DNA from: Vreelandella aquamarina
GTDB taxonomy: Bacteria > Pseudomonadota > Gammaproteobacteria > Pseudomonadales > Halomonadaceae
Assembly (NCBI RefSeq): GCF_900110265.1
Contig: NZ_FODB01000019.1
Span: 5,079-29,078 of the forward strand
DNA: 24,000 nt
Reading direction: 5' to 3'
In this document: in pieces, positions 1,061-22,538 of the stretch
How positions within the stretch are numbered: position 1 is the stretch's first letter
How the letters are laid out: every line of letters begins with the position of its first letter
Notes under the pieces: model-generated
Database searches by the model: none
What the model was told of the DNA's origin: nothing
Seen by the model: the letters and a program-made list of their open reading frames with translations, nothing else
Program-made: the position numbers and the translations under genes

Positions 1061-2608
1061 ATGTCAGCCCTTCCCATGTCCGCAGTTATTGGCGTGGTCG
1101 GCGCAGGTGCTATGGGTGCCGGTATCGCCCAGGTTGCCGCCCAGGCTGGCCATTCGGTGGTCTTGTATGACAATCAACCGGGTGCCGCTAACGCCGGTAT
1201 CGACAACATACGCCGCCAGTTAGAAAGGCGCGTCGCCAAAGGAAAGATGACTCAAGGCGATGTTATTAGCGTCATTGAGCGCTTGCAGCCTGCTGAGAGT
1301 ATGGATGCCTTGGCCCAGAGCCACTTGGTAATCGAAGCCATTCTTGAAGAACTTGAGATCAAGCGCCAGGTATTCGCCCAACTAGAAGCCCTGTGCTCGC
1401 CTGACACTTTGCTCGCCAGTAACACCTCGTCGCTGTCGATTACTTCTATTGCTGCGAACCTAGAACACCCCGAGCGCATGGCAGGGCTGCATTTCTTCAA
1501 CCCTGCTCCGGTAATGAAACTGGTGGAAGTGGTATCTGGTCTGGCGACAACCGTTGAGGTTGCTGACACCCTTTACGCTACCGCCAACGCTTGGGGCAAG
1601 ATTGCGGTGCATGCCAGCTCCACTCCTGGGTTCATCGTTAACCGCGTGGCGCGACCATTCTATGCTGAAGGGTTACGACTGTTGCAAGAAGGTGCTAGTG
1701 ATGCCGCCACTCTGGATGCGCTGCTGCGTGAGGCCGGCGGGTTTCGCATGGGCCCCTTCGAGCTGATGGACCTGATCGGTCATGACGTTAACTATGCGGT
1801 GACCCGCTCGGTGTTCGACGCTTATTACGGTGACACCCGTTTCAAACCCTCGCTGGTGCAGCACGCCTTGGTCGAAGCTGGACGCCTGGGACGCAAGTCT
1901 GGTCAAGGCTTCTTCGATTATCGCGAAGAACAGCAAGGAGGCGCTATCAAGCCTCAGCCCAACATCGCGCGCCCAGCGCAAGTTGAATTACCGCCGCTAG
2001 TGGTGCAGGGCGACCCTGGGGTGATCGCTCCGCTGCTGGAACGCGCCCAGGAAACAGGACTCGATGTGGTTCGTCGAGTATCGCTGCATCAGGACGGCAC
2101 GCCTCGCTTGCACCTAGGCGACCTAGTTATGGCACTCAGCGACGGGCGCTGCGCCACCGAACGCGCAGTCAACGAAGGGCTCGAAGCACTGGTGCTATTC
2201 GACTTGTGCTTGGACTACCGCAGTGCCAGGGCCATCGCGCTCTCTGCCAGCCACGCCACATCGCCCGAGGCCTGCCAACTGGCCACCGCCTTCTTCCAGC
2301 GTCTGGGAATGGATGTCGTCTGGCTGACCGATACGCCAGGTCTAGTGGTGTTGCGTACCGTGGCCATGCTCGCCAACGAAGCCGCCGATGCCGTATTGCA
2401 AGGTGTTTGCAGCGCCCAGGATGTCGACCTAGCCATGCAAGCTGGCGTTAACTACCCACGCGGCCCCTTGGCCTGGGCGGACTTGCTAGGCTTAGCCTTC
2501 GTCAACCGCACCCTCACGCACCTGCAGCAGAGCTACGGCGAAGAGCGTTATCGCAGCTCGTTCCTGCTGCGTCGCAACGCCCTGAGCGAGGAAAGCTTTC
2601 ATGAGTGA
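1061..2608 (+). CDS. paaH: 3-hydroxyadipyl-CoA dehydrogenase (3-hydroxyacyl-CoA dehydrogenase family) PaaH
   Basis: The in-frame ATG at 1061 follows GGAGAA at 1051-1056, 2 nt after the paaG stop. The N-terminal Rossmann motif VIGVVGAGAMGAGIAQ is present. The protein is 515 aa, comparable to Pseudomonas-type PaaH/PaaC. Its stop overlaps the paaI start (ATGAGTGA). Confidence 0.9.
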   Translation: MSALPMSAVIGVVGAGAMGAGIAQVAAQAGHSVVLYDNQPGAANAGIDNIRRQLERRVAKGKMTQGDVISVIERLQPAESMDALAQSHLVIEAILEELEIKRQVFAQLEALCSPDTLLASNTSSLSITSIAANLEHPERMAGLHFFNPAPVMKLVEVVSGLATTVEVADTLYATANAWGKIAVHASSTPGFIVNRVARPFYAEGLRLLQEGASDAATLDALLREAGGFRMGPFELMDLIGHDVNYAVTRSVFDAYYGDTRFKPSLVQHALVEAGRLGRKSGQGFFDYREEQQGGAIKPQPNIARPAQVELPPLVVQGDPGVIAPLLERAQETGLDVVRRVSLHQDGTPRLHLGDLVMALSDGRCATERAVNEGLEALVLFDLCLDYRSARAIALSASHATSPEACQLATAFFQRLGMDVVWLTDTPGLVVLRTVAMLANEAADAVLQGVCSAQDVDLAMQAGVNYPRGPLAWADLLGLAFVNRTLTHLQQSYGEERYRSSFLLRRNALSEESFHE

Positions 2609-3068
2609 TTCCCAACTGACCCCACAGCAGCTGGCGGAAGCCTGTGCCGAGGCAATGTTTGCCCGTGACCATGCCAGCCAAGGGCTAGGCATGCGCATAA
2701 CCCGTGTCGCCCCCGGCTTTGCAGAACTGACCATGACCGTGCGCCAGGATATGGTACAGGGGCACGGCAACTGCCATGGCGGGTTTCTGTTTGCCCTGGC
2801 CGACTCCACCTTCGCGTTTGCCTGCAACAGCTACGATGAAGCCACCGTGGCCGCTGGCTGCAGTATCGACTACCTCGGCCCCGGCCAGCTAGGCGACGAA
2901 CTGACCGCCACCGCCGAAGAACGTAGCCGCCGTGGGCGCACCGGCATTTACGACATTACGTTGCGCAATCAGCACGGCGATACCATTGCCTTGTTTCGCG
3001 GGCGTTCCTACAAAATTCGCGGCAGCGTACGCCGCCTGGAAGATACTGCTGTTGGAGATAACCAATGA
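2601..3068 (+). CDS. paaI: Phenylacetyl-CoA / hydroxyphenylacetyl-CoA thioesterase PaaI (hotdog fold)
   Basis: The protein is 155 aa. It has the PaaI-type motif [21 protein letters not shown]. The gene is translationally coupled on both sides, overlapping paaH by 8 nt and paaJ by 4 nt (ATGA). Confidence 0.85.
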
Positions 3069-4270
3069 AAGACGCGCTGATCATTGATGCCATTCGTACC
3101 CCGGTAGGTCGCTACGGCGGTGCGCTTTCGAGCATGCGTGCCGATGACCTGGGAGCCATTCCTATGCGCACCCTGATGGAACGCAACCCGAGCGTCGACT
3201 GGTCGCTGATTGACGATATCTTTTACGGCTGCGCCAACCAGGCAGGGGAAGACAACCGCAACGTGGCGCGTATGTCCGCGCTGCTGGCCGGGCTTCCGGT
3301 CGAGGTGCCCGGCACCACCATTAATCGCCTTTGCGGCTCCGGTATGGATGCGATCGGCAACGCCGCCCGCACCATCAAGACCGGTGAAGCGGGGCTGATG
3401 ATCGCCGGAGGGGTGGAATCAATGTCCCGCGCGCCCTTTGTGATGGGCAAGGCGGAACAAGCCTTCTCACGCCAAGCCGATATCTTCGACACCACCATCG
3501 GCTGGCGCTTTATCAATCGCGCCATGAAAGCCCAGTTCGGCGTGGACTCCATGCCCGAAACAGCTGAAAACGTGGCCGAACAGTTTGGTATTTCCCGGGA
3601 AGACCAGGACGCCTTCGCCCTACGCAGCCAGCAGCGTACCGCCGCCGCTATCGAGGCTGGCCGCTTGGCCGAAGAGATTGTTCCGGTCGAAATCCCCCGC
3701 CGCAAACAAGACCCGCTGGTGGTGGATACCGATGAGCACCCGCGCGCTACCACAACTGCCGAGCAGCTTGCCAAGCTACCCACGCCCTTCCGCGAAGGCG
3801 GCAGCGTCACCGCCGGTAATGCCTCAGGCGTGAACGATGGTGCCTGTGCGCTGCTAATGGCATCTCCTGAGCAGGCCGAACGTTTCAGCCTCAAGCCACG
3901 TGCTCGTGTGGTGGGTATGGCCACCGCCGGGGTGGAGCCACGCATTATGGGGTTCGGACCCTCCCCGGCCACCCGCAAGGTACTCGCCCAGACCGGGCTG
4001 ACCCTCGATCAGATGGACGTTATCGAACTCAATGAAGCCTTCGCTGCTCAAGCGTTGGCGGTCATGCGCGACCTGGGCCTTAGCGATGATGCCGAACACG
4101 TTAACCCCAATGGCGGCGCCATCGCGCTAGGCCACCCGTTAGGCATGAGCGGCGCTCGGCTGGTCACCACGGCACTGCATGAACTCGAACGTCGGCAAGG
4201 GCGTTTTGCGCTATGCACCATGTGTATCGGGGTCGGACAGGGCATTGCTCTGATCATTGAGCGCTTATAA
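3065..4270 (+). CDS. paaJ: 3-oxoadipyl-CoA / 3-oxo-5,6-dehydrosuberyl-CoA thiolase PaaJ
   Basis: This is a 401-aa thiolase. The N-terminus [33 protein letters not shown] closely parallels E. coli PaaJ. The C-terminus has the thiolase motifs [20 protein letters not shown] and CIGVGQG. Confidence 0.9.
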
Positions 4271-4276
4271 GCCGAT

Positions 4277-4315
4277 TTCATAGACCACTACTTCATAGAC
4301 CACAAACCAGACCAT
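4277..4315 (+). promoter_or_regulatory. Direct repeats TTCATAGACCAC x2 (4277-4288 and 4292-4303, period 15) plus a partial third copy CAGACCAT (4308-4315) in the paaJ-paaK spacer. This is a candidate regulator-binding site or internal promoter element.
   Basis: Two exact 12-mers separated by 3 nt can be read directly in the sequence. They lie 50-90 nt upstream of the paaK ATG. No function has been demonstrated. Confidence 0.3.
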
Positions 4316-4365
4316 GGCTCATAAAACGTTAGCCCAATAACAACTTGCTTGACCGGAGATCCCTG

Positions 4366-5679
4366 ATGAATCAGCCCGCTACGCGTATCGACTCTGCGAC
4401 TCTCGACCCCTTGGAAACCGCCAGCGTCGACGAGCTGCGCGCCACTCAGGTCAAGCGCCTGAAGTGGAGCCTGAAGCACGCTTACGACAATGTGCCGTTC
4501 TACCGCCAGTCTTTCGACAAGGCTGGGGTGCATCCCGACGATATCCAGACGCTGGCGGATCTCGCCAAACTGCCTTTCACCACCAAGGCTGATTTGCGCG
4601 ACAACTACCCGTTTGGCATGTTGGCCACGCCGATGAGCGAGATCGTTCGTATCCATGCCTCCAGCGGCACCACTGGGCAACCAACGGTGGTGGGCTACAC
4701 CCAGAAGGATATTGATGTGTGGTCCGATGTGGTGGCGCGCTCAATCCGTGCCGCTGGCGGCAGCCGCAACGACAAGGTGCATGTGGCATATGGCTACGGC
4801 CTGTTCACCGGCGGGCTGGGCGCCCATTACGGTGCCGAGCGCCTGGGCTGCGCGGTGATTCCCATGTCGGGCGGCCAGACTGAGAAACAGGTTCAGTTGA
4901 TTCGTGATTTCCAGCCGGACATCATCATGGTCACCCCCTCGTATATGCTCAACATCGCTGACGAGATGGAGCGCCAAGGCATCGACCCTCATACGCTGCC
5001 CTTGCGCACCGGCATTTTCGGTGCCGAACCTTGGACCGACAGCATGCGCACTGCGCTAGAGCAGCGTCTGGGCATCGACGCCCTCGATATTTACGGCCTC
5101 TCCGAGGTAATGGGTCCGGGCGTGGGCATGGAGTGCCTGGAGACTAAAGATGGTCCAACCATCTGGGAAGATCATTTCTACCCCGAGATCATCGACCCGA
5201 TCAGCGGTGAGGTTCTGCCAGACGGCGAATACGGCGAGCTAGTATTCACCACCCTAACCAAAGAAGGCTTGCCGGTGATTCGCTATCGCACCCGCGACTT
5301 GACCCGCCTGCTGCCGGGCACCGCGCGCCCCATGCGCCGCATCGACAAGATCACTGGCCGCAGCGACGACATGCTTATCATTCGCGGGGTGAACGTGTTC
5401 CCCACCCAGATTGAAGAGCAGTTACTCAAGATCGCGTCACTTTCTCCCCATTACGAGATCGAAGTCAGCCGCCAAGGCAATATGGACATGGTGCGGGTGC
5501 GGGTAGAGGCGAATCATCATGACATCGCCCGCGACCCCACGGCCTGTGAGCAAGCAGCGAAACAGCTACAGCATGCTATCAAAACGTACATTGGTATCAG
5601 CACCCAGGTTGAGGTGTGCCAGGTAGAGAGCGTGATGCGCTCGCTGGGTAAGGCCAGACGCGTTAAAGATCTGCGCTAA
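4366..5679 (+). CDS. paaK: Phenylacetate-CoA ligase PaaK
   Basis: The ORF track starts at a TTG at 4345. The ATG at 4366 is preceded by GGAGA at 4353-4357 and gives MNQPATRIDSATLDPLETASVDELR..., which matches the usual PaaK N-terminus. The AMP-binding motif SSGTTGQPTVVGYT and the sequence YGLFTGGLGAHYGAERLG are present. The protein is 437 aa. Confidence 0.9.
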   Translation: MNQPATRIDSATLDPLETASVDELRATQVKRLKWSLKHAYDNVPFYRQSFDKAGVHPDDIQTLADLAKLPFTTKADLRDNYPFGMLATPMSEIVRIHASSGTTGQPTVVGYTQKDIDVWSDVVARSIRAAGGSRNDKVHVAYGYGLFTGGLGAHYGAERLGCAVIPMSGGQTEKQVQLIRDFQPDIIMVTPSYMLNIADEMERQGIDPHTLPLRTGIFGAEPWTDSMRTALEQRLGIDALDIYGLSEVMGPGVGMECLETKDGPTIWEDHFYPEIIDPISGEVLPDGEYGELVFTTLTKEGLPVIRYRTRDLTRLLPGTARPMRRIDKITGRSDDMLIIRGVNVFPTQIEEQLLKIASLSPHYEIEVSRQGNMDMVRVRVEANHHDIARDPTACEQAAKQLQHAIKTYIGISTQVEVCQVESVMRSLGKARRVKDLR

Positions 5680-5681
5680 TT
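5476..5681 (+). repeat. Left copy of a direct repeat, formed by the paaK 3' end plus the stop codon. It is duplicated at 8446-8651.
   Basis: At an offset of 2970 nt, 5521-5681 matches 8491-8651 with only 2 mismatches (5583 A/G and 5589 C/T, both synonymous). Segment 5476-5520 aligns to 8446-8490 with about 8 mismatches in 45 nt. Confidence 0.95.
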
Positions 5682-5698
5682 CACCTATCTTAAAAGTT

Positions 5699-5735
5699 GC
5701 CTCCTCGTGCTGTGCCGCCTCAGCACGAGGATGGC
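5699..5735 (+). terminator. GC-rich stem-loop just after the paaK stop, with no U-tract. It could be a leaky terminator, an attenuator or an mRNA-stabilising hairpin.
   Basis: CCTCGTGCTG (5703-5712) and CAGCACGAGG (5721-5730) are perfect reverse complements around an 8-nt loop. The stem can be extended to GCCT.../...ATGGC with one bulge. The hairpin is followed by AGGCTTCGTTTATCG rather than a T-run. Confidence 0.35.
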
Positions 5736-5788
5736 AGGCTTCGTTTATCGTCGTGTTTCCCCCAGGCCAAAAATAAGGATAAACATTA

Positions 5789-8233
5789 ATGCAAAATGTT
5801 CGCCTGCCTACCCTAGTCGGCACCACTGCCCTCGCACTTTTGATCGGTGCTACAACACCAGTAGTGGCCGATGAGATTACTATTAAACGCGATAATTACG
5901 GCACTCCCCATATATTTGCCGATGATCGCTATGGACTGTTTTTTGGCTATGGCTACTCCATAGCCCAAGACAGGCTCTACCAGCTGGAGATAACTCGCCG
6001 CAGCACCCAAGGCAAGGTAGCCGAGGTGCTTGGTTCTGACTATCTCGATTTCGATATTGGCATCCGAAAACACTATGACCCAGCCAGCATACACGCCCAG
6101 CTAGAATCTTTGCCTGATGAGCAGCATGATATTCTCCAAGGCTATGCTGACGGCATCAACCGCTGGCTAGAAGCCATCGAAGCAAACCCAGAAACCCTGA
6201 TGCCGAAGCAATTCATTGATGCTGGCTTCGAGCCAAGCCCTTGGAGTTCATTCGACGTAGCCATGATCTTCATCGGCACTATGGTCAACAGGTTTGGCGA
6301 CTACAACACAGAGTTAGAAAATCAGCAAATTTTCATGAACTTAGTGGAGATGCATGGCGAGGAGAAAGGCCAAGCATTATTTGACCTTTTGCTGACTTTT
6401 TATGATCCAGCTGCACCAACTACCATTCCTCACGGTGACTGGGACCCACAGCTCAGGGATGGTGCATTTTCTCTGGATGATAAGACCAGCAAATCGATTA
6501 CTTTCTTCCAAGCCCCGGAAAATGAAACCTACCTCGCAGCAAGCGGAGGTACCTTACAGCTGCCTAATCTTTATGAGCGCCCTTTCAGCAACCTATTGAT
6601 TCTTGGTTCTGATCGCAGTGATAGCGCAGAGTCCATCCTAATTAACGGCCCACAATTTGGCTTTTACCAACCTGCTTATACCTATTCTGTAGGGCTGCAT
6701 GGCGCAGGATATAACGCTGTTGGAAATAGCCCCTTTGGCTACCCAATGATAATGTTTGGTCATAATGATTCAATCACTTGGGGCAGCACCTGGGGTGCCG
6801 CTGACAACGTTGATCTATTCCGCCTTGAGCTGGATCCCAGCGAACCGGAGCGCTATCTCGTAGGCGATGATTATCACGACTTGGACAGCCGCGTAGAAAC
6901 CATCAATGTGCGAGACCAGAAGAGCCATGAACTAACTGTGTATCGCTCCCACCACGGTGCAGTAGTTGACTACCGTCCTGACGAGGGTGTTGCATATGCC
7001 AAGGCCCGTGGCTGGGAAGGCCATGAGATGGCAACCCTTATGGCCTGGCACAATATTACTAATGCTAATAATCACGCCGAGTGGCTAGAAGAGGCTTCGA
7101 AGTCAGCAATCAATGTCAACTTGTACTATGCCGACAAAGAAGGAAACATCGCCTATGTAATGGGTGGTCGCTACCCCCAACGCGCTCCAGGACATGACGG
7201 CAGGCTCCCGGCGCCCGGCTATGGTAATTATGACTGGCCGGGATTCATGCCTTTCGAAACCAATCCACAGGTGATTAATCCTTCAACTGGCTATATTGCC
7301 AACTGGAACCAACGCGCAGCAGAGGGCATGCCAAATCCTGATATGTGGTGGTATGCATGGCATGAAGCGGATAGGGTCCAGACTTTGTTCGACTCTATCG
7401 AGGAGCAGGAAAGCTTCTCTGGACAAGAAGCCTGGGAGTTGATGATGGAGGCTTCCTTCATTGATCCCAGCGCACGCTTCTTCATTCCTAGGCTAGTAGA
7501 AGCAGTAGAAGCTGCTGATGCCCCCGAGCTGCTAGATGCCATCAAGCTTCTAGCCACTTGGGATCATCGCGAGATCGACCAAACTGGCGACGGTTACTAC
7601 GATTCTCCTGCCGTCCCGCTGTATAGAGCCTGGCTCATGCATCTTATTGAACAAATCTACAGCAACATTCTCCCTGAGGCTCATAACGCTTGGTTTCTTA
7701 ACACTGGACATTTAGAGCCCGGCGGCAGCTCTCCTGGCAGCACAAATATCTCGGTAGCTGCCAAGGTGCTCTATCATGCACTTCAGGGTGAGAGCGATAC
7801 TATTGGCTTCGATATTTTCGGAGGCAAAGACCCTAAAGTGCTGATGCGCAATGCTTTGACCGAATCTGTAGAGTCGCTAAAAGAGGAACAGGGAGATGAA
7901 ATGAGCGCTTGGCGTACCGCCGTTACTCATACTACCTTCTCCCACCTTAATTTCTTAAGAGTACCTCAAGCCGGTGAAGAAGAAGCGATACAAATACACC
8001 ATGCCATGAACCGTGGCACAGAAAACAACATGACCATCTTCTCTAATGGGCAGGTCTCAGGTTATGAAGTCGCCGCGCCAGGCCAGTCAGGCTTCATTGC
8101 GCCTGACGGCAACGCCTCACCTCACTATCAAGATCAACTGAACCTCTTCGAGACACTCGATAATAAGCGCATGTGGCTCACACCCGATGACATAAAATCA
8201 AATACCTCACACTCAGAGACCATAGAGTACTAA
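5789..8233 (+). CDS. pac: Penicillin G acylase (Ntn-hydrolase, penicillin amidase family) precursor with an N-terminal signal peptide
   Basis: The 814-aa protein is collinear with my recollection of E. coli penicillin G acylase. Shared blocks include KRDNYGTPHIFADD, GYGYSIAQDRLYQLE, RRSTQGKVAEVLG, ILQGYADG, NPETLMPKQF, FDVAMIFIGTMVNRF, INGPQFGFYQPAYTYSVGLHGAGY, GYIANWN, NISVAAKVLY, NRGTENNM and VAPGQSGFIAPDG. The predicted signal peptide is MQNVRLPTLVGTTALALLIGATTPVVA. The beta-chain N-terminal nucleophile is Ser267, in SNLLILG at nt 6587-6589 (E. coli has SNMWVIG). The RBS is AAGGA at 5775-5779. Confidence 0.9.
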   Translation: MQNVRLPTLVGTTALALLIGATTPVVADEITIKRDNYGTPHIFADDRYGLFFGYGYSIAQDRLYQLEITRRSTQGKVAEVLGSDYLDFDIGIRKHYDPASIHAQLESLPDEQHDILQGYADGINRWLEAIEANPETLMPKQFIDAGFEPSPWSSFDVAMIFIGTMVNRFGDYNTELENQQIFMNLVEMHGEEKGQALFDLLLTFYDPAAPTTIPHGDWDPQLRDGAFSLDDKTSKSITFFQAPENETYLAASGGTLQLPNLYERPFSNLLILGSDRSDSAESILINGPQFGFYQPAYTYSVGLHGAGYNAVGNSPFGYPMIMFGHNDSITWGSTWGAADNVDLFRLELDPSEPERYLVGDDYHDLDSRVETINVRDQKSHELTVYRSHHGAVVDYRPDEGVAYAKARGWEGHEMATLMAWHNITNANNHAEWLEEASKSAINVNLYYADKEGNIAYVMGGRYPQRAPGHDGRLPAPGYGNYDWPGFMPFETNPQVINPSTGYIANWNQRAAEGMPNPDMWWYAWHEADRVQTLFDSIEEQESFSGQEAWELMMEASFIDPSARFFIPRLVEAVEAADAPELLDAIKLLATWDHREIDQTGDGYYDSPAVPLYRAWLMHLIEQIYSNILPEAHNAWFLNTGHLEPGGSSPGSTNISVAAKVLYHALQGESDTIGFDIFGGKDPKVLMRNALTESVESLKEEQGDEMSAWRTAVTHTTFSHLNFLRVPQAGEEEAIQIHHAMNRGTENNMTIFSNGQVSGYEVAAPGQSGFIAPDGNASPHYQDQLNLFETLDNKRMWLTPDDIKSNTSHSETIEY

Positions 8234-8430
8234 AAACACTCAAAATCCCAAGTATTGGCTATCCATAACCAGTTCTAACTTTACGAGGTCGCTCTCGACT
8301 GCCTTTTGCCCCCGGCGCACCAGGCATAGCGTTCAGCGCCTTGACTAGTGCTGTTTCTGAGAGTGACTTGGGTGCACACCTGGAAAGGGAAATGTTAGTC
8401 GACGGCAAGAGTGTCTCCTGCAGAGGAAAT

Positions 8431-8649
8431 TTGAAGGAAGTCAAAGGCAATATGGATATGGTGCTTGTGCGTGTCGAGGCGAGCAATCATGACATCGCCC
8501 GCGACCCCACGGCCTGTGAGCAAGCAGCGAAACAGCTACAGCATGCTATCAAGACGTATATTGGTATCAGCACCCAGGTTGAGGTGTGCCAGGTAGAGAG
8601 CGTGATGCGCTCGCTGGGTAAGGCCAGACGCGTTAAAGATCTGCGCTAA
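8431..8649 (+). pseudogene. Orphan paaK 3' fragment, the right copy of the direct repeat, lacking the N-terminal ~370 codons
   Basis: It encodes ...EVKGNMDMVLVRVEASNHDIARDPTACEQAAKQLQHAIKTYIGISTQVEVCQVESVMRSLGKARRVKDLR*. The intact paaK tail reads ...EVSRQGNMDMVRVRVEANHHDIARDP...KDLR*. The last 161 nt are 99% identical and similarity decays upstream. There is weak in-frame protein-level resemblance back to about 8380 (HLEREMLV..KSVS versus QIEEQLLK..ASLS). No RBS or credible start is present. Confidence 0.85.
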
Positions 8650-8709
8650 TTTCGCCCCCTGCTTAACAGCGGCGCATCGCCATAGACCGAGACTGAAACT
8701 CAGACCGAC

Positions 8710-8740
8710 GCCCTTGCAGGCAACCCTGCAAGGGCTTTTT
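8710..8740 (+). terminator. Rho-independent terminator downstream of the orphan paaK fragment. It is probably the ancestral paaK terminator and now ends the paaK-pac transcript.
   Basis: GCCCTTGCAGG (8710-8720) and CCTGCAAGGGC (8725-8735) form a perfect 11-bp stem with the loop CAAC. The stem is followed by TTTTT (8736-8740). Confidence 0.8.
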
Positions 8741-8858
8741 CATTCCCAAACAGCCAGCTTTGATGAAAAAAGATAGAACATTAAGAATCACTTAAATTCA
8801 GTCATTTTTCCTTTTTAAACCAACCACATTGGCTTTATCCGTAATCACAAAGTCTTAA

Positions 8859-8927
8859 AGTGACACATAAAAATACTTATTGATAAAATATTTTGTGTCA
8901 CTATACTTTAAACAAGATAAGTCACAC
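8859..8927. promoter_or_regulatory. Three copies of an AGTGACAC-like motif around the candidate paaA promoter. Two form a 9-bp inverted repeat, and the set is a candidate operator.
   Basis: AGTGACACA (8859-8867) and TGTGTCACT (8894-8902) are exact reverse complements with similar flanks (AAAGTGACACATAAAA versus the reverse complement ATAGTGACACAAAA). The right arm overlaps the spacer and -10 element. A third copy, AGTCACAC (8920-8927), has 1 mismatch. Confidence 0.4.
8880..8907 (+). promoter_or_regulatory. Candidate sigma70-type promoter for paaABCDE: TTGATA, a 16-nt spacer, then TATACT
   Basis: TTGATA lies at 8880-8885 and TATACT at 8902-8907, in an AT-rich segment about 50 nt upstream of the paaA ATG (8959). 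This was identified by eye only. Confidence 0.4.
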
Positions 8928-8958
8928 TCCCTGATAGTCCGACGCCGCGGAGGTCTCT

Positions 8959-9945
8959 ATGTACGCGCAGCTCGTTGAAACCGGTACTAGCAAACTTAAG
9001 TCACTTGACGAGATGGGCCCTGAGGAACGCCAGTTCCAAGAGCGCATCAATGATGAAATTAAGATAGAACCCAAAAATTGGATGCCGGACGCCTATCGCA
9101 AGACATTGGTCCGTCAGATCTCTCAACACGCTCACTCAGAGATCGTCGGTATGCTTCCGGAAGGCAACTGGCTGACGCGTGCGCCGACCCTTAAGCGCAA
9201 GCTGCAGCTGATGGCCAAAATTCAGGATGAGGCGGGTCACGGCCTGTACCTCTATAGCGCCATGGAAACCCTCGGTGCCGACCGCGACGAAGAGATCGAC
9301 AAGCTTCACGACGGCCGCGCTAAGTACTCCAGCATCTTCAACTACCCGACGCTTAACTGGGCAGACATGGGCACCATCGGTTGGCTGGTCGACGGCGCAG
9401 CCATCGTCAATCAGGTGCCGCTACAGCGCACTTCTTACGGCCCCTATGCGCGCGCGATGATTCGCGTATGTAAAGAAGAAAGCTTCCACCAGCGCCAGGG
9501 TTATCAGATTCTGCTGACCATGATGCAAGAAGGCACTGACGACCAGAAAGCCATGGTTCAGGACTCTATTAACCGTTTCTGGTGGCCATCGCTAATGATG
9601 TTCGGCCCGTCCGACGAAAACTCGCCTAACAGTGCCCAATCAATGGTTTGGAAGATCAAGCGTCACAGCAACGATGAGCTACGCCAGCGCTTCCTCGACC
9701 AAACCGTACCGCAGCTAGAGCTGCTGGGCTGCACTGCGCCTGACCCGGATCTCAAATATAACCAAGAGACCGGTCACTACGAGTTCGGTGAAATCGACTG
9801 GCAGGAATTCTTCGACGTGGTTAAAGGCAACGGCCCTTGCAACCGCGAACGTATCGAAGCACGCCGTAGCGCCATTGATAACGGTGCCTGGGTACGTGAA
9901 GCCGCCGTGGCTTATGCCGCCAAGCGTCAACGCAAAGCCGCCTGA
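8959..9945 (+). CDS. paaA: 1,2-phenylacetyl-CoA epoxidase catalytic subunit PaaA
   Basis: The 328-aa protein has long near-identical stretches to E. coli PaaA, including [75 protein letters not shown] and [11 protein letters not shown]. The RBS is GGAGG at 8949-8953. Confidence 0.95.
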
Positions 9946-10034
9946 TATCTCGAAACTAATACCTCGAAACTGATTTCTTAAAACAATAGGGAGCCCCACG
10001 GCACGGGGTTCCTCTGACCACTGAGGCTTCTCTC

Positions 10035-10316
10035 ATGGCTGACTGGCCCCTCTTCGAAGTTTTTATACGCAGCAAGCACGGTCTTAACCACAAGCACGTT
10101 GGCAGCGTACATGCCGCCGACCGCAGCATGGCAATCGAAAACGCCCGCGAGCTCTACACCCGTCGTAATGAAGGGGTGAGCATCTGGATTATTCCGGCTA
10201 GCGAAATCACCGCCTCTTCCCCTGATGAGAAAGAGCCGCTGTTCGACCCGTCTAACGACAAGGTCTATCGCCACGCATCCTTCTACAAACTGCCGAAAGA
10301 AGTCGGCCACATGTGA
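10035..10316 (+). CDS. paaB: 1,2-phenylacetyl-CoA epoxidase subunit PaaB
   Basis: The 93-aa protein contains WPLFEVFIRSKHGLNHKHVGSVHAAD...KVYRH.SFY, which parallels E. coli PaaB. Confidence 0.95.
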   Translation: MADWPLFEVFIRSKHGLNHKHVGSVHAADRSMAIENARELYTRRNEGVSIWIIPASEITASSPDEKEPLFDPSNDKVYRHASFYKLPKEVGHM

Positions 10317-10330
10317 GGAGGGAGGCTGTA

Positions 10331-11170
10331 ATGCAAAACGTGGCTAAGCAGAACACAACTCAGAAAAACATGGCTCATCAAAACATCGCTCAAAAAACAC
10401 AAACACCGTTGATCGATTACCTGCTGCGTCTTGGTGACAGCGCCTTGGTACTAGGTCAGCGCCACGCGCAGCTGTGCGGCAAGGCCCCTGCGTTGGAAGA
10501 AGAAATGGCGCTAATGAATGTGGGTCTCGACCTTTTCGGTCAGGCACGCAACTGGCTAGGCTATGCTGCTGAACTGATGGCTGCTGAACTGATGACTGGC
10601 AAGATCGATGCCGACCATCTGGCCTTTCGCCGCGACGCTCAGGACTTTCGCAACCTGTTGATCGTCGAGCAGCCCAACGGTGACTTCGCCGACATCATGG
10701 GACGCCAGTTCCTGTTCGATGCATGGCACGTGCACCTGCTTGATGGGCTGGCCCAGTCCAGCGACCCTCGCATTGCTGAAGTGGCTGCCAAGTCACTTAA
10801 GGAAGCGACGTACCACCTACGCCGCTCCTCCGAATGGGTGATTCGCCTGGGCGATGGCACCGAAGAGAGCCACACCCGCATGCAGCGCGCCCTAGACAAC
10901 CTCTGGCAGTTCACCGGCGAGCTGGTGCAGTTCGACGAGATTGATCAGGCCATGCTAGAAGCCGGTATCGCGCCTGCCCCGGAAACCCTGGTCACCCGCT
11001 GGAAAGCAACCGTGGAAGAGGTGCTTGAGGAAGCCACGCTGGAGCGTCCTTCCTACGACGCTTGGATGTATACCGGCGGCAAAGTCGGCCATCACACCGA
11101 GCACCTGGGCTTTCTATTGGCGGAAATGCAATACCTGCCGAGGACGTATCCTGATGCGACCGTCTGGTAA
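10331..11170 (+). CDS. paaC: 1,2-phenylacetyl-CoA epoxidase subunit PaaC, with an unusual N-terminal repeat extension
   Basis: The ORF track begins at a GTG at 10313. The ATG at 10331 is preceded by GAGGAGGGAGG at 10315-10325. From LIDYLLRLGDSALVLGQR onward the protein is collinear with E. coli PaaC, including LVEQPNGDFAD, DAWHV, KEATYHLRRS and HTEHLG..LAEMQYL. The start codon is less certain than the gene identity. Confidence 0.85.
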   Translation: MQNVAKQNTTQKNMAHQNIAQKTQTPLIDYLLRLGDSALVLGQRHAQLCGKAPALEEEMALMNVGLDLFGQARNWLGYAAELMAAELMTGKIDADHLAFRRDAQDFRNLLIVEQPNGDFADIMGRQFLFDAWHVHLLDGLAQSSDPRIAEVAAKSLKEATYHLRRSSEWVIRLGDGTEESHTRMQRALDNLWQFTGELVQFDEIDQAMLEAGIAPAPETLVTRWKATVEEVLEEATLERPSYDAWMYTGGKVGHHTEHLGFLLAEMQYLPRTYPDATVW

Positions 11171-11753
11171 CCCACCGTCGACACCTATCGGTGACGGGCC
11201 TATTGATGACTGGCCCTCCAGAGACCTGATCGGCAGCGACCGCAGCGGGCTGCCGCCAGCCGGTGAAAAAGGCGATGTCGACGCCGTGCTGGCCGTTTTA
11301 CAGGAAGTGCCAGACCCGGAAGTTCCGGTGGTCAGCGTGGTTGAGCTGGGCATTGTGCGCGATATTGATTGGGTGGACGGTCGGTTGGCGGTCAACGTGA
11401 CGCCAACTTACTCCGGCTGCCCGGCTACGGAAGTCATCGAACAGCATATCCATGAAGCGCTAGTGGCCGCTGGCTACTCAGACCCGCTAATTCAACGCCG
11501 CCTATCACCCGCCTGGACGACCGACTGGCTGACCGACGCCGGGCGCGAAAAATTGCGCGCCTATGGCATCGCACCACCGGTGGGAAGTGCCAGCAAACGT
11601 AGCCTGACGGGCCAGTCTGACCCGGTAGTGCCCTGCCCTTTATGTGGCAGCAACGCGACCGAACGCGTCAGCGAATTCGGCTCTACGGCTTGCAAGGCGC
11701 TCTACCGCTGCCGCGATTGCCTGGAGCCTTTCGATTATTTCAAGTGTCTGTAA
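11154..11753 (+). CDS. paaD: Phenylacetate-CoA oxygenase subunit PaaD
   Basis: The ORF track gives 11025..11753. The first ATG beyond the paaC coding frame is at 11154 and overlaps the paaC end by 17 nt. The conserved PaaD core is present: VPDPEVPVVSVVELGIVR, TPTYSGCPATE, PAWTTDWLT, and the C-terminal SEFGSTACKALYRCRDCLEPFDYFKCL. This start implies an N-terminus about 35 aa longer than in E. coli PaaD, so the start is uncertain. Confidence 0.8.
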   Translation: MRPSGNPPSTPIGDGPIDDWPSRDLIGSDRSGLPPAGEKGDVDAVLAVLQEVPDPEVPVVSVVELGIVRDIDWVDGRLAVNVTPTYSGCPATEVIEQHIHEALVAAGYSDPLIQRRLSPAWTTDWLTDAGREKLRAYGIAPPVGSASKRSLTGQSDPVVPCPLCGSNATERVSEFGSTACKALYRCRDCLEPFDYFKCL

Positions 11754-11772
11754 AACGACGAGACCATTTCCC

Positions 11773-12965: not shown

Positions 12966-15008
12966 ATGCCAGTTTTACAGAGTTACATTGCCGGTCAATG
13001 GTTTGGCAAAACCGAGTCCAAAGCGCTGATCAGCGCCATCAACGGCACCACCGTTGCGCATACCCACCAAGAAGAGATCAACTTTCGCGAAGCGGTGGCG
13101 TATGCCCGCAACACCGGCGTAAAAAACATTCTGGCGCTGGATTTTCAGCAGCGGGCCGCCATTCTTAAGGCGCTGGCAGCCTATATCCAAGAGCGTAAGC
13201 GTGAGCTTTATGCCATATCTCACCACACCGGCTGCACCAAGGCCGACTCCTGGATCGACATTGACGGCGGTTTCGGCACGCTGTTTACCTACGCCTCTAC
13301 GGGCCGCAAAGAACTGCCCTCCGGCAATGTGGCCCACGAAGGCCCGGTGACTCAATTAGGTAAAGAGAACCATTTCAACGGCACCCACATTCTGGTGCCT
13401 CGTCGCGGTGTCTCGGTGCATATTAATGCCTTCAACTTTCCTATCTGGGGCATGCTAGAGAAGTTCGCACCCGCTTTTCTGGCTGGCATGCCGTGTATCT
13501 TCAAGCCAGCCACCGCGACGAGCTACCTGACCGAAGCTGCGGTACGCGTGATCAACGATTCTGGCCTACTGCCGGAAGGTGCACTACAGCTGGTGGTCGG
13601 TGGGGCCGGTGACTTATTGGATCACCTAGAAGAGCAGGACTTTGTCACCTTTACCGGCTCGGCCAACACCGCCTTAATGCTAAAAAGCCACCCTAATATT
13701 ATGGCCAAGAGCATTCCTTTCAACGCCGAGGCGGACTCGCTCAACAGCGCGATCATGGCACCAGATATCAGCCCTGAAGATGAAGAGTTCGCGATCTTTG
13801 CCAAAGAAGTGGTCAAGGAAATGACCGCTAAAGCAGGCCAGAAATGTACGGCGATCCGTCGGGTACTCGTACCCGCTGAGCATCTGGTTACATTGGCAGG
13901 CATGATTAAAGAACGTCTCTCAAGCATCGTAGTGGGCGACCCCCATGAAGAGGGCGTGCGCATGGGTGCACTCTCTTCCAGCGACCAGCTGTGTGATGTG
14001 AACGAGGCTATCGAACAGTTGCTGGAAACCAGTGAGTGCGTTTTCGGCAGAGACGGCAACTTCAAGGCTGTCGGCCAGAGCGTGGAAAACGGCGCGTTTA
14101 TTTCTCCTCACCTACTGATCAACCGTAACCCGTTAAACGACGGCGGCGCACACGACATTGAAGCCTTTGGTCCGGTCGCGACGCTAATGCCCTATAACGG
14201 CATCGATGAGGCCTTAGCCATTGCCGCCAAGGGCAAGGGTAGTTTGGTAACCACGCTAACCACCAAAACCCCCGCCATTGCTGCCGAAATGATCCCCGTG
14301 CTAGCCGCCCAGCACGGCCGCCTGCACATTCTAGATGCTCAGGCATCAAAGGAGTCTACGGGTCACGGCTCTCCGCTACCGATGCTCAAGCATGGTGGGC
14401 CTGGCCGCGCAGGCGGTGGCGAGGAGCTCGGCGGCATTCGCGCGGTACACCACTATCTACAACGCACTGCTATCCAGGGTTCGCCCACGATGGTGGCGGC
14501 AGTCACCGGGGAGTATGTGCGTGGCGCGAAGGTGCTGGAAACTGACGTTCACCCGTTCCGCCGCCATTTCGATGACCTGCAGGTGGGCGAGTCACTGTTA
14601 ACCCACCGCCGCACCGTCACTGAAGCCGACATCGTCAACTTTGGCTGCCTCTCCGGCGACCACTTCTACATGCACTTCGACGATATTGCCGCCAAAGAGA
14701 CCCAGTTTGGCCAGCGCATTGCCCACGGCTACTTTGTACTGTCGGCAGCCGCTGGCTTGTTCGTTTACCCAGGCGAAGGACCGGTACTGGCAAACTACGG
14801 CCTGGATACGCTGCGCTTTATTACGCCGGTGCTGGTTGGCGACACCATCCGCGCCCGCCTCACCTGTAAGCGCAAGATTGATCAGGGCCGAGCGTCTCCT
14901 GACGGGCACCCGCAAGGCGTAGTGATGTGGGATGTGGCGGTGACCAATCAGAATGATGAGTTGGTTGCCAGTTACGACATTCTAACGTTGGTCGCGAAGC
15001 GTCAGTAA
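12966..15008 (+). CDS. paaZ: Bifunctional oxepin-CoA hydrolase / 3-oxo-5,6-dehydrosuberyl-CoA semialdehyde dehydrogenase PaaZ (N-terminal aldehyde dehydrogenase domain plus a C-terminal MaoC-like hydratase domain)
   Basis: The 680-aa protein is collinear with E. coli PaaZ. Shared blocks include [67 protein letters not shown]-like, VTFTGSANT and [12 protein letters not shown]. The C-terminal MaoC-type segment contains [14 protein letters not shown]. Confidence 0.9.
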
Positions 15009-19511: not shown

Positions 19512-20480
19512 ATGAGTAAGAAATTCGCGTCCCATGCCGATATCGAAGAGAAGCAGATTAGTTTCACCAAGCTGGCAGAGGGACTCTATGCTTATACCGC
19601 TGAAGGGGACCCCAACACGGGAATTGTGATTGGCGATGACAGCGTGATGGTTATCGATACCCAAGCAACACCGATCATGGCTCAGGACGTCATCCGCCGT
19701 ATCCGCGAGGTAACTGACCTACCGATTAAGCATGTGGTAATGACCCATTACCACGCCGTACGTGTGCTTGGGGCTTCTGCATACGAGGCAGAGAATATTT
19801 ATGCTAGTCAGAACACCTACGACCTAATCGTAGAGCGTGGCCAGCAAGATTATGAGTCTGAGGTTGGCCGCTTCCCACGTCTATTTAAGGGTGTGGATTC
19901 CGTGCCTGGATTAACTTGGCCAAACATCGTCTTCCAAGAAAAGATGACGGTATTCATGGGGGAACGTGAGGTACAGATCATTCACCTAGGCCGCGGACAT
20001 ACCAAAGGTGACACCATCGTTTGGCTGCCAAAGGAAAAAGTGATGTTTTCCGGTGACCTCGTTGAGTATGGGGCCACACCTTACACTGGGGATGCTTACC
20101 ATGAGGACTGGCCCGCCACGCTTGATCGCCTTCAGGCCATGCAACCTCAAAAGCTGGTGCCCGGCCGTGGTGATGCACTGCAAACTGCGGAGCAGTGTAT
20201 GGAAGCGGTTCAAGGCACCCGTGATTTCTTGAATGATATGTATGGAAATGTCAAAGCAGGTAAGGCGGCCGGAAAATCTCTTTCTGAATGCTATGCCGAT
20301 ACCTACGCGGTACTCAAGCCGAAGTATGGACATTGGGTCATTTTTGATCACTGCGTACCTTTCGACATTACTCGCTGCTACGACGAAGCAGGCGGCGAAT
20401 ACCCTGATCCCCGTATTTGGACAGCAGAGCGTGATACGGCTATGTGGCATTCGCTTCAGGATGCCGTCGAGAATCAGTAA
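19512..20480 (+). CDS. Metallo-beta-lactamase-fold protein of unknown specificity, with a non-canonical motif 2
   Basis: The 322-aa protein has an MBL-like motif order: VMVIDT, then VMTHYHAVRVLG (where HxHxDH would be expected), then HLGRGHTKGD, then FSGDLVEYG. The RBS is GGAG at 19503-19506. It is the first gene of the operon that contains hmgA. Confidence 0.75.
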   Translation: MSKKFASHADIEEKQISFTKLAEGLYAYTAEGDPNTGIVIGDDSVMVIDTQATPIMAQDVIRRIREVTDLPIKHVVMTHYHAVRVLGASAYEAENIYASQNTYDLIVERGQQDYESEVGRFPRLFKGVDSVPGLTWPNIVFQEKMTVFMGEREVQIIHLGRGHTKGDTIVWLPKEKVMFSGDLVEYGATPYTGDAYHEDWPATLDRLQAMQPQKLVPGRGDALQTAEQCMEAVQGTRDFLNDMYGNVKAGKAAGKSLSECYADTYAVLKPKYGHWVIFDHCVPFDITRCYDEAGGEYPDPRIWTAERDTAMWHSLQDAVENQ

Positions 20481-20517
20481 GTGCCTTATTAGTTTAGTGA
20501 CGTCCACTGATCATGCC

Positions 20518-20547
20518 CAGCTGTCGGATGTCATGCATCCGACACTG
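20518..20547 (+). other. Intercistronic stem-loop between the MBL-fold gene and the monooxygenase gene
   Basis: TGTCGGATG (20522-20530) and CATCCGACA (20536-20544) form a perfect 9-bp stem with the loop TCATG. The stem extends through CAG/CTG with one bulged C. No T-run follows. The monooxygenase RBS (GGGGAG, 20550-20555) lies immediately 3' of the stem. Confidence 0.4.
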
Positions 20548-20561
20548 CAGGGGAGCAATAG

Positions 20562-22301
20562 ATGCCAACAACCTATAAAAATCCAATCTATCCTTACCGA
20601 CGTCCGCCTGAACTTGATGCTCAAGGCGTTTGCCATTATTCGGTTATCATTGTCGGTGCCGGACCCAGCGGCCTCGCCGCCGCCATTGATTTGGCCCAAC
20701 AAGGTGTTAGCACGGTTGTCTTAGATGATAACAACACCGTTAGTGTAGGGTCACGAGCGCTATGTTTTGCTAAGCGCTCGCTAGAAATCGTTGACCGCTT
20801 GGGTTGTGTGGAGCCGATGCTCGAAAAAGGCGTCACGTGGCAGCACGGTCGCGTTTTCTTTCAAGACCGTGAAGTCTACGACTTCAATCTGCTGCCAGAA
20901 GACGGCCACCGCATTCCCGCCTTTATTAACTTGCAGCAATATTACTTTGAAGAGTTTCTGGTTAACCGCGCTCACGACTTTCCAAAGCACATTGATCTTC
21001 GTTGGAAACACAACGTCATCGGCGTCGATGCTCAGCCTGAAAGCACCGCTATAAAGGTTTCAACTCAGGATGGTGATTACCAGCTGACCTGTGACTATCT
21101 GCTTGTCTCAGATGGTGCAAACAGTCGAATCCGCGACATGCTGGGCCTTGAGTGCAAAGGCCAAGTGTTTCAGGACCGCTTCCTGATAGCAGATGTGGTT
21201 ATGAAAGCAGATTTTCCGACAGAGCGCTGGTTCTGGTTTGATCCCCCCTTCCATCCCAATCAATCGGTGCTGCTGCACAAAGAACCGGACAATGTTTGGC
21301 GTATCGACTTCCAGTTAGGCTGGGATGCAGACCCAGAAGAAGAAAAGAAAGAAGAGAACATTCGTCCAAGAGTGCAGGCAATGCTTGGCAAAGATGTGGA
21401 GTTTGAGCTTGAGTGGGCCAGTGTCTATACCTTCCGCTGCCGCAAGATGGATAATTTTATTCATCATCGCGTGATATTTATGGGTGACGCGGCCCATCAG
21501 GTATCCCCCTTTGGGGCCAGGGGAGCCAACGGTGCCTTGCAAGGCGTAGATAACTTAGTGTGGAAACTTGCTCGCGTTCTCCAAAAGCAGGCACCAAAGG
21601 AGCTTTTGTCCACATACAACACTGAGCGCCAGCATGGTGCGGCAGAAAACCTCCTTAACTCGACACGTGCCACTGACTTTATCACTCCAAAGAGTCACGT
21701 CAGCCAAGTGTTCCGAGATGTAACGCTAGAGCTGGCTGAAAAACATGCCTTCGCACGTAGTCTAGTCAACAGCGGTCGCCTTTCCATGCCCTGTCGCTAT
21801 GACAACTCTCCACTTAATACGCCCGATGTTGATGGTGGCCCAAGCGAGTTGCGCCCTGGCAGCCCGGCGAAGGACGCGCCCATTCGCTTGGAAGAAGAGC
21901 ACGCTTGGTTACTCAATCAATTTGGCAATGGCTTTGTGTTGTTATTTGATGGTCGTATTGGTGATAGGCATGCCGACACACTTACCTCGCTTTTGAAAGA
22001 GTTGAGTGAGTTGCTAGACCATCGCACTAATTTAAGCATAGTGGTCGTTGGTCCAGCATCGGATGAGTTTAGCGTTCTACCGCGAACGACCGTCATAGAT
22101 GATACTGAAGGGCTAGTGACGCAACGATACGACCTGAAAGCAGGCTCCGGATATCTTATTCGACCTGACCAACACGTTGCTGCTCGTTGGCACGCTATCA
22201 CTGTTCACAAGATAAATGATGCTTTAGATCGCACCCTAGGCGTTCATCTTGCGGGTACCGCTGACTCTGCCAACCAGGAGCGCTGCCATGCCCAGGCTTG
22301 A
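20562..22301 (+). CDS. Class-A FAD-dependent aromatic monooxygenase (PheA/TfdB/MhpA-like, with a C-terminal extension); candidate large subunit of an MhaA-type hydroxyphenylacetate hydroxylase (homogentisate synthase)
   Basis: The 579-aa protein has the dinucleotide-binding motif IIVGAGPSGLAAAIDLAQQG, the DG motif LLVSDGANSRIR and the GD motif FMGDAAHQVSPFGARGANGALQGVDNL. It sits directly upstream of an overlapping small ORF and of hmgA. Confidence 0.85.
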   Translation: MPTTYKNPIYPYRRPPELDAQGVCHYSVIIVGAGPSGLAAAIDLAQQGVSTVVLDDNNTVSVGSRALCFAKRSLEIVDRLGCVEPMLEKGVTWQHGRVFFQDREVYDFNLLPEDGHRIPAFINLQQYYFEEFLVNRAHDFPKHIDLRWKHNVIGVDAQPESTAIKVSTQDGDYQLTCDYLLVSDGANSRIRDMLGLECKGQVFQDRFLIADVVMKADFPTERWFWFDPPFHPNQSVLLHKEPDNVWRIDFQLGWDADPEEEKKEENIRPRVQAMLGKDVEFELEWASVYTFRCRKMDNFIHHRVIFMGDAAHQVSPFGARGANGALQGVDNLVWKLARVLQKQAPKELLSTYNTERQHGAAENLLNSTRATDFITPKSHVSQVFRDVTLELAEKHAFARSLVNSGRLSMPCRYDNSPLNTPDVDGGPSELRPGSPAKDAPIRLEEEHAWLLNQFGNGFVLLFDGRIGDRHADTLTSLLKELSELLDHRTNLSIVVVGPASDEFSVLPRTTVIDDTEGLVTQRYDLKAGSGYLIRPDQHVAARWHAITVHKINDALDRTLGVHLAGTADSANQERCHAQA

Positions 22302-22488
22302 ACTTAACCCGAATTTTACTGACCCGGACGCCTTTTACGCTGCGCTCACGGCGCTACATCGCAACCGTAGCGAGGCAGAGAGCGAGCGCATCAATGCCCG
22401 TCTTATCTTGTTACTTGCCAACCACATCGGTGATCAAGCAGTGCTTGAAGAAGCGATTGCCCAATCAGTTGGTGATGTCGATAAATAA
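22288..22488 (+). CDS. Small (66 aa) protein overlapping the monooxygenase stop; candidate MhaB-type coupling component (I recall this sequence type as DUF2783-like)
   Basis: The ORF track gives 22249..22488 from a TTG. The ATG at 22288 is preceded by AGGAG at 22276-22280 and overlaps the upstream stop (22299-22301) by 14 nt. The sequence MPRLELNPNFTDPDAFYAALT...NARLILLLANHIGD resembles small proteins that I recall being encoded next to such monooxygenases. This has not been verified by a search. Confidence 0.6.
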   Translation: MPRLELNPNFTDPDAFYAALTALHRNRSEAESERINARLILLLANHIGDQAVLEEAIAQSVGDVDK

Positions 22489-22538
22489 CCGCGCCATAAA
22501 CTTATCAAAATAACATTCAAATAAAGCAGGTCTTAACA

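Follow-up and report, generated by a model that had tools for sequence, protein, structure and literature searches.

A penicillin-acylase-family gene bracketed by a duplicated paaK 3′ end in a Halomonas-like phenylacetate cluster

Here, we describe a foreign segment of 2,755 bp that sits directly past the stop codon of the phenylacetate-CoA ligase gene paaK, between two direct copies of the final ~215 bp of that gene. It lies in the phenylacetate (paa) catabolic cluster of a Halomonas-like gammaproteobacterium, on a stretch of 24,000 nt of contig NZ_FODB01000019.1 that was analyzed as a whole (hereafter the window). All position numbers are those of the window, and L-numbers denote fetched loci or contigs that were compared with it. 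Between the two copies of the repeat (5682-8436) are a hairpin-bearing spacer, one gene for an acylase of the penicillin G acylase family (pac) and 203 nt of orphan DNA. We favor, with confidence a little better than even, an origin by single-crossover (Campbell-type) integration of a circularized donor fragment that carried a paaK 3′ end and pac, with later spread of the surrounding block and a role of the acylase as a feeder enzyme of the pathway. The elements at and around the junctions are the following.

4366-5679, plus strand: intact paaK (phenylacetate-CoA ligase; TIGR02155, 735 bits versus a cut-off of 646)
5461-5681, plus strand: left copy of the duplicated paaK 3′ end, with 72 sense codons, the stop codon and 2 nt
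5682-5788, plus strand: paaK-pac spacer of 107 nt, with a hairpin at ~5694-5741 and an AAGGAT ribosome-binding site before the pac ATG
5789-8233, plus strand: pac, encoding a precursor of 814 aa of a penicillin-G-acylase-family Ntn hydrolase (PF01804)
8234-8436, plus strand: orphan DNA between pac and the relic, without detectable homology to paaK or other fetched loci
8437-8651, plus strand: right copy, the paaK 3′ relic, with 70 sense codons, the stop codon and 2 nt
8710-8745, plus strand: native intrinsic terminator of paaK, with an 11-bp stem, 8 GC pairs and a T-run (hairpin 8710-8735)
8860-8907, plus strand: AT-rich region 5′ of paaA with two overlapping sigma-70-like promoter calls (10/12 each), which are consensus matches only
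8959-9945, plus strand: paaA, first gene of the paaABCDE epoxidase operon (TIGR02156, 536 bits)

A repeat search placed the direct repeat at 5474-5681 and 8444-8651 (208 nt, 95% identity, spacing 2,970 nt), with 10 mismatches at left-copy positions 5487, 5495, 5496, 5502, 5505, 5513, 5514, 5515, 5583, and 5589. Just upstream, the right copy has a 6-nt in-frame deletion and lacks the GCCGCC of left positions 5468-5473 (GAAGTCA-GCCGCC-AAGGC, read as EVSRQGN, on the left; GAAGTCA-AAGGC, read as EVKGN, on the right). When this deletion is allowed for, the homology extends back to 5461/8437. The alignment bears out most of what an initial annotation, made from the sequence alone, had described: only two mismatches, both synonymous, between 5521-5681 and 8491-8651 (5583 and 5589, with AIKTYIG encoded by both copies), a drop to 37/45 identical positions between 5476-5520 and 8446-8490, the indel upstream of these, and divergence immediately downstream of the stop codon, where the copies part company right past TAATT. 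One count needs correction, as 5521-5679 comprises 52 sense codons plus the stop and not 53. The left copy completes paaK, at the 735 bits given above, and the right copy is indeed an orphan, i.e., a PaaK fragment that scores 47 bits against the TIGR02155 cut-off of 646 and is not a member of the family. It starts at a sharp junction at 8437 and is continuous with native downstream DNA, including the strong terminator that had been noted 3′ of it and that is found at 8710-8735 plus T-run. Because the same arrangement occurs in independent samples, the direct repeat is not an assembly artefact. On many contigs the relic is called as an 85-aa protein (8392-8649) that consists of the AMP-binding C-terminal domain only; there is no sign that this open reading frame (ORF) is expressed.

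The reading of the locus as an insertion or recombination scar, proposed in the initial annotation, is supported because two pac-less relatives, L001 and L110, carry the paaK tail once and then the same terminator and paaA. L001 (Halomonas sp. SpR1) is the nearest genome in the species-representative collection, and its PaaK is 96% identical to that of the window (88.8% at the DNA level). Its paaA follows ~310 nt after paaK, its single-copy tail (11130-11337) aligns to both window copies, and its DNA past the paaK stop aligns to the window from 8652 onward, terminator hairpin included. In L110, a Logan contig that encodes an identical PaaA, paaK is followed directly by paaA, and a single tail (4499-4707) again aligns to both copies. 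This contig is 100% identical to the window over ~9000-11764 (paaA-D), 87% identical across paaG-paaK and ~70-90% identical across 8500-8950. The terminator at 8710-8745 is kept 3′ of paaK in both relatives. The alignments confirm an insert of ~2.8 kb between paaK and paaA, and the downstream alignment of L001 and L110 likewise upholds the view that, of the two tails, it is the right copy that goes with the native terminator and the promoter region of paaA. L110 was also considered as a deletion derivative of the window type, which was discarded because its tail differs from both copies at 16/161 positions. Direct succession of paaK and paaA is the common order: across the 80 paaK loci that were compared, paaA lies at most 1 kb downstream of paaK in 14, and a pac-like gene occurs within 10 kb of paaK in one, at 35% identity.

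The insert is compositionally foreign. Its pac gene has a GC content of 0.50 and a GC content at third codon positions (GC3) of 0.51, versus a GC3 of 0.65-0.76 for the paa genes, and it is the sole ORF of at least 80 aa in 5682-8436, except for short antisense ORFs within pac. The ORF list and family searches revealed no integrase, recombinase or transposase gene in the insert, and the repeat search found no terminal inverted repeats at its borders. No match emerged for the spacer or for 8234-8436 when their source was sought with blastn and tblastx in all fetched loci, by a search of plasmids and by an Rfam scan. The hairpin of the spacer, with a folding energy of -37 kcal/mol and a z-score of -5.1, occurs only once in the window and was not called by the terminator scan. 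Two pac lineages are located after paaK, and their GC3 is 0.81 in L091 (222-2675) and 0.51 in the window (5789-8233). The window pac is either unadjusted to the paa composition of its host or from a lower-GC donor.

The initial annotation had read the identity profile of the two copies as stepped, from near identity through an intermediate tier to resemblance at the protein level only. The step at 5520/8490 is real (8/47 versus 2/161 mismatches, Fisher p = 1.3e-4), but the last tier is not, as no weak protein resemblance reaches back to ~8380. When a profile was made from 80 PaaK sequences, only the part of the relic ORF between residue 34 (nt 8440) and the stop aligned to it. For the 32 residues farther upstream the score is -2.7 bits, with the match falling in an irrelevant region of the model, and 88 out of 300 shuffled sequences do no worse; the equivalent segment of the left copy scores 50 bits. 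Likewise, tblastn of 8266-8436 against the 80 paaK loci gave only chance-level, off-target matches, and the longer alignment range of the relic to the NCBIfam model is not upheld by the 80-sequence family profile. Because paaK homology is not detectable upstream of 8437, the idea that the cassette brought with it the long tail of a divergent paaK loses its main evidence.

The step indicates instead a different allelic ancestry of the two copies, i.e., a mosaic and not decay. In the 47-nt segment upstream of the step, left and right copy differ at 8/47 positions, as do L110 and L001 (8/47); the right copy differs from L110 at 2/47 and the left copy at 6/47, and nearly all variant bases are found in functional paaK alleles. 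Over the 161-nt segment, each copy has 16 differences from L110 and 22 from L001, and the two share states not seen in L110, L001 and L002, including a TAA stop codon where the others have TGA. Since the copies differ like separate lineages in the 47 nt and are equidistant in the 161 nt, at least one of them is, as judged from these distances, recombinant at about 5516-5520.

The arrangement is found in many samples. Independent samples yielded at least 24 contigs that encode an identical acylase, with the order paaK-pac-relic-paaA in 10 of the 10 places listed, and an identical PaaK of 437 aa is encoded on 15 contigs, with pac after paaK in all places listed. The low-frequency, RecA-dependent loss of the insert that had been predicted from the repeat did not surface, as its deletion product was not seen in the places listed among these 15 contigs. 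L081 is identical to the window, and the pac-bearing contigs have the following block in common.

4247-9500, plus strand: minimal block 100% identical across pac-bearing contigs, with outer flanks that differ by 10-12%

The left endpoint of the block lies at ~4247 in L082 and at ~3700 in L083, with identity to ~9500, and the identity of L085 to the window ends near 10000. Because the endpoints vary (L082, L083, L085, L110) and lie well outside the repeats, the block from paaK to early paaA has been exchanged among diverged Halomonas lineages through ordinary homologous recombination within the paa genes on either side, and not as a repeat-bounded cassette. The mosaic structure of L082 is not a one-off chimera, since its diverged left flank recurs at 100% identity in L107, which is from an independent sample. 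An origin of this flank from the L110 background with the block received was rejected; the two are 89% identical, and the L082 flank represents another distinct lineage. L082, L083 and L088 additionally share a patch of 72 differences at 9500-10250 (paaA 3′ end to paaB) that is window-identical on both sides and looks like a second, separate recombination tract in the cluster.

The acylase matches PF01804 with residues 30-803 over profile positions 2-674 of 675 (E = 1e-136). Its closest solved relatives are the penicillin G acylase (PGA) structures 7reo, 4pem, 1gk9 and 3k3w, and it is ~50% identical to solved enterobacterial PGAs. In the alignment to 7reo, the beta-S1 nucleophile is kept as S267, and beta Q23, F24, F57, N241 and R263 as well as alpha-M142 and F146 are also kept; we presume the roles of the aligned residues, as beta-Ser1 and in the oxyanion hole and the phenylacetyl pocket, from the E. 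coli PGA. Because its N-terminus is a signal-like segment, the acylase is probably periplasmic. It likely releases phenylacetate from phenylacetyl amides or esters; the released acid would be activated by PaaK and enter the paa pathway. As stated in PMC9493321 and PMC2265553, penicillin G acylase is seen as an enzyme that scavenges phenylacetyl esters and amides, and pac of E. coli W is controlled by PaaX, the repressor of paa. In the window, the paaGHIJK transcription unit has pac at its end, and the terminator native to paaK is 3′ of the relic. The gene is probably transcribed by read-through from paaGHIJK, with transcription ended at the native terminator past the relic, and its co-expression with the pathway that consumes its product is likely.

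Homologues of pac occur in other genomic contexts. In L098 (1815-12259), from another taxon, a 55%-identical pac is found beside an OprD-family porin gene, paaX, a paaY-like gene and paaF-J, a physical pac-paa association unlike that of the window. In L092 (Halomonas icarae), a pac homologue is placed among homogentisate, aldehyde dehydrogenase and quinohemoprotein amine dehydrogenase genes, a setting of phenylethylamine and homogentisate metabolism. Protein searches with pac returned no protein between 74% and 62% identity, and a metagenome scan for relatives of the 74% pac lineage with downstream context gave only matches of at most 57% identity.

Campbell-type integration is the simplest single event by which the intact gene, the insert and the 3′ fragment with its sharp boundary could have arisen, and it is from this topology that we infer the step. 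A donor Halomonas would already have had pac directly after its own paaK. A donor fragment with one end within paaK (at the equivalent of 5461) and the other 203 nt beyond pac would have been circularized, with the closure at what is now 8436/8437, and the circle would have integrated by one homologous crossover in the near-identical stretch of the paaK tail (5521-5681). Upstream of the crossover, each copy would keep a different allelic ancestry, as in the 5487-5515 patch, without later conversion. The left copy completes a working paaK, and the right copy is a dead remnant, still attached to the native terminator and the promoter region of paaA. Homologous recombination then spread the block from paaK to early paaA among Halomonas lineages. 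The direct repeats are a segment of the target gene that is single in the empty sites L001 and L110, which is the relationship that Campbell-type integration produces. A donor with a paaK-pac arrangement is plausible because the same adjacency is found in a second lineage; the high-GC Halomonas-like L091 has a 74%-identical pac (P0002) directly past the paaK stop, with a hairpin-bearing spacer.

Several points weigh against this integration model and the feeder function attached to it. No circle, donor genome or intermediate was found, and a closure of 8436 to 5461 outside the chromosome was seen in none of the contigs examined. It must be assumed that the tails of donor and recipient were ~99% identical over 161 nt yet 17% different just upstream, although a population as mosaic as this one makes such a pairing plausible. 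L091 ends 124 nt past pac, with a relic out of view, and its spacer is without demonstrable homology to that of the window. Residue 335 of the acylase, equivalent to beta-69, is Trp, and the E. coli and Kluyvera PGAs have Ala at this position, the backbone of which is part of the oxyanion hole in PGA. Finally, the strong hairpin 3′ of paaK could halt read-through into pac.

A possible, though on balance unlikely, history is that the duplication is older and that its diverged tails were later homogenized over the last ~161 nt by gene conversion from the functional paaK. Equally tentative is the corollary that conversion tracts stopped where similarity had already fallen, which would account for the step at 5520/8490. 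Such a history would agree with the sharpness and significance of the step and with the states that the copies share and that are absent in L110, L001 and L002, including TAA versus TGA as stop codon, and the adjacency of paaK and pac in the 74%-identical lineage L091 suggests that the arrangement may be old. It also drew on three haplotypes of single-nucleotide polymorphisms (SNPs) among otherwise identical contigs. At 5583/5589 in the left copy and 8553/8559 in the right copy, the window, L081, L085 and L088 have AC and GT, respectively; AC is present in both copies of L082-84, L086, L089 and L090, and GT in both copies of L087. However, the homogenized haplotypes come from 'METAG-scaffold' records or from contigs with SPAdes-style 'NODE' names, for which coverage is mostly 3-10x, while one MEGAHIT-style k127 contig, a deposited metagenome-assembled genome and 'ICM' contigs keep both alleles (the attribution to SPAdes and MEGAHIT is by contig name style). 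Bubble-popping in a collapsed repeat, at a k of 55 or less versus identical runs of 67 nt and 92 nt, would likely mimic homogenization, and this presumed assembler behavior may be the source of the homogenized contigs. The SNP haplotypes were withdrawn as evidence of ongoing gene conversion, since the homogenized forms track contig names, low coverage and scaffold records. Conversion is further disfavored by the variant bases of the 47-nt patch, which are natural paaK alleles and not random decay, and by the lack of a decayed paaK upstream of 8437, where an old relic might have left a trace. Homogenization of the tails, which the initial annotation had offered as one of two histories, is thus retained as a candidate but not as a demonstrated process, because the homogenized haplotypes coincide with assembly type.

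It is improbable that a replication template switch, by microhomology-mediated break-induced replication or by fork stalling and template switching, made the insertion and the duplication together; the corresponding course of events, in which DNA synthesis departed from the chromosome past the paaK stop, used ~2.75 kb of foreign DNA as template and returned to a point 215 nt upstream, is just as doubtful. Events of this kind typically give an insertion flanked by a target duplication, and both the short GAAG repeat at the 8433-8440 junction and the sharp start and end of the duplicated segment would be in line with them. Yet the copies would begin identical, which leaves the patch of 8 mismatches and the 6-nt deletion in need of extra events, and the position of pac directly past paaK in L091 means that the left junction need not have arisen in this lineage.

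We give little credence to the proposal that the paaK-tail repeat is a portable homology handle that makes pac a recombinase-free cassette, or that the 85-aa ORF of the PaaK C-terminal subdomain is expressed and functional. If there were such a handle, a unit of 2.97 kb, made of one tail and pac, would be excised as a circle when the repeats recombine and would re-enter any related paaK by a single crossover, always restoring the target gene.

Some bacteria carry two paaK genes, and the relic keeps the reading frame and is annotated on many contigs as a gene of 85 aa, but it is very unlikely, and disfavored here, that the right copy is the remnant of a second full-length paaK (paaK-pac-paaK2) with its 5′ part deleted: a paralogue would neither be 99% identical over 161 nt nor run on into the terminator and promoter found after the lone paaK of L001 and L110, and no paaK signal is present upstream of 8437. 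Barely credible, and likewise disfavored, is a self-mobile element, i.e., a transposon or a site-specific island that targets the paaK 3′ end and supplies a replacement 3′ end; although the topology of intact gene, insert and displaced 3′ fragment fits 3′-end-integrating islands and an IS3-family element in the unrelated contig L128 abuts a paaK tail ~19 nt from the equivalent junction, the insert has no integrase or transposase gene (pac being its only ORF of at least 80 aa bar short antisense ones) and no inverted repeats at its borders, its duplication of ~215 nt is far above any transposon target duplication, and the endpoints of the shared region are variable and well outside the repeats, not fixed at them, with the identical block extending leftward to at least 4247 and rightward to 9500-10000.

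L128 itself is a metagenome contig of 675 nt (1-675) with the C-terminus of an IS3-family transposase and an IS end that abuts a Halomonas-type paaK tail. The tail has 82% aa identity to the relic, and the junction is at the equivalent of ~5480, ~19 nt from 5461. A protein search for other paaK relics returned only the relic of the window and that of L128. The L128 junction may be a coincidence, or this portion of paaK may be prone to insertions.

The locus resembles the insertion duplications obtained with suicide plasmids, which arise by Campbell-type integration and also consist of an intact or hybrid gene, the insert and a truncated second copy in direct orientation; there, the duplicated length equals the homology on the circle, and the structure can revert between the repeats. 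Unlike a suicide-plasmid insertion, the window is without vector or replicon, the circle is hypothetical, and the copies differ by a 29-nt patch and the 6-nt deletion. Islands and prophages that integrate at 3′ ends share with the window an intact target gene and a displaced 3′ fragment as direct repeat at the far end, but have an element-encoded integrase and fixed att borders, neither of which is found for the window insert. The pac insertion is an ordinary recombination scar and not a new kind of element.

In E. coli W, the pac-paa link is regulatory and pac is not known to lie inside the paa cluster; pac of the window, in contrast, is physically between paaK and paaA. The E. coli W PGA (Kim et al. 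2004, as cited in PMC9493321) is of the same family, and the window acylase shares with it the catalytic and phenylacetyl-pocket residues and the link to phenylacetate catabolism. According to PMC2265553, the 'PEN' region of Acinetobacter baumannii AYE comprises 15 genes, including a putative penicillin acylase, and likely serves penicillin catabolism. As in the window, a gene of the penicillin acylase family is thereby in a region that was tied by its authors to phenylacetate catabolism, in their case via PaaX (PMC2265553). The organism is a different one, and no flanking paaK duplication is reported for it.

The locus provides a population-level example of a catabolic operon that gained an accessory 'feeder' enzyme, with carrier and empty-site alleles in near-identical genomes and a gained block that is spread by homologous recombination. 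With pac placed between paaK and paaA in a marine Halomonas, it also lends genomic support to the old notion that PGAs serve in nature to scavenge phenylacetylated compounds for the paa pathway. No new mechanism or system is revealed, as this is well-documented, ordinary operon growth by recombination; some interest derives from the pac-paa linkage and from the polymorphism of pac-bearing versus pac-less forms.

The remaining paa genes of the window were assigned as follows.

Within ORF 52-1059: paaG (NCBIfam)
Within ORF 944-2608: paaH (NCBIfam)
2601-3068: paaI (NCBIfam)
3065-4270: paaJ (NCBIfam)
Downstream of paaA: paaB, paaC, paaD, and paaE (NCBIfam)
12966-15008: paaZ (NCBIfam)

The longest ORF of paaK begins with a TTG at 4345, and gene callers on identical contigs choose 4366, which gives the 437-aa protein. 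Farther along the window are genes for a TRAP transporter, a MarR regulator and the homogentisate pathway. The region 19512-23846 (MBL-fold hydrolase, FAD oxidoreductase, hmgA) is syntenic with L092, and the window stops short of the position equivalent to the L092 pac, such that a second pac in the same genome is possible. In L092, this pac is 62% identical to that of the window and is placed ~4 kb downstream of hmgA, adjoining the genes for an MFS transporter, an aldehyde dehydrogenase and a quinohemoprotein amine dehydrogenase.

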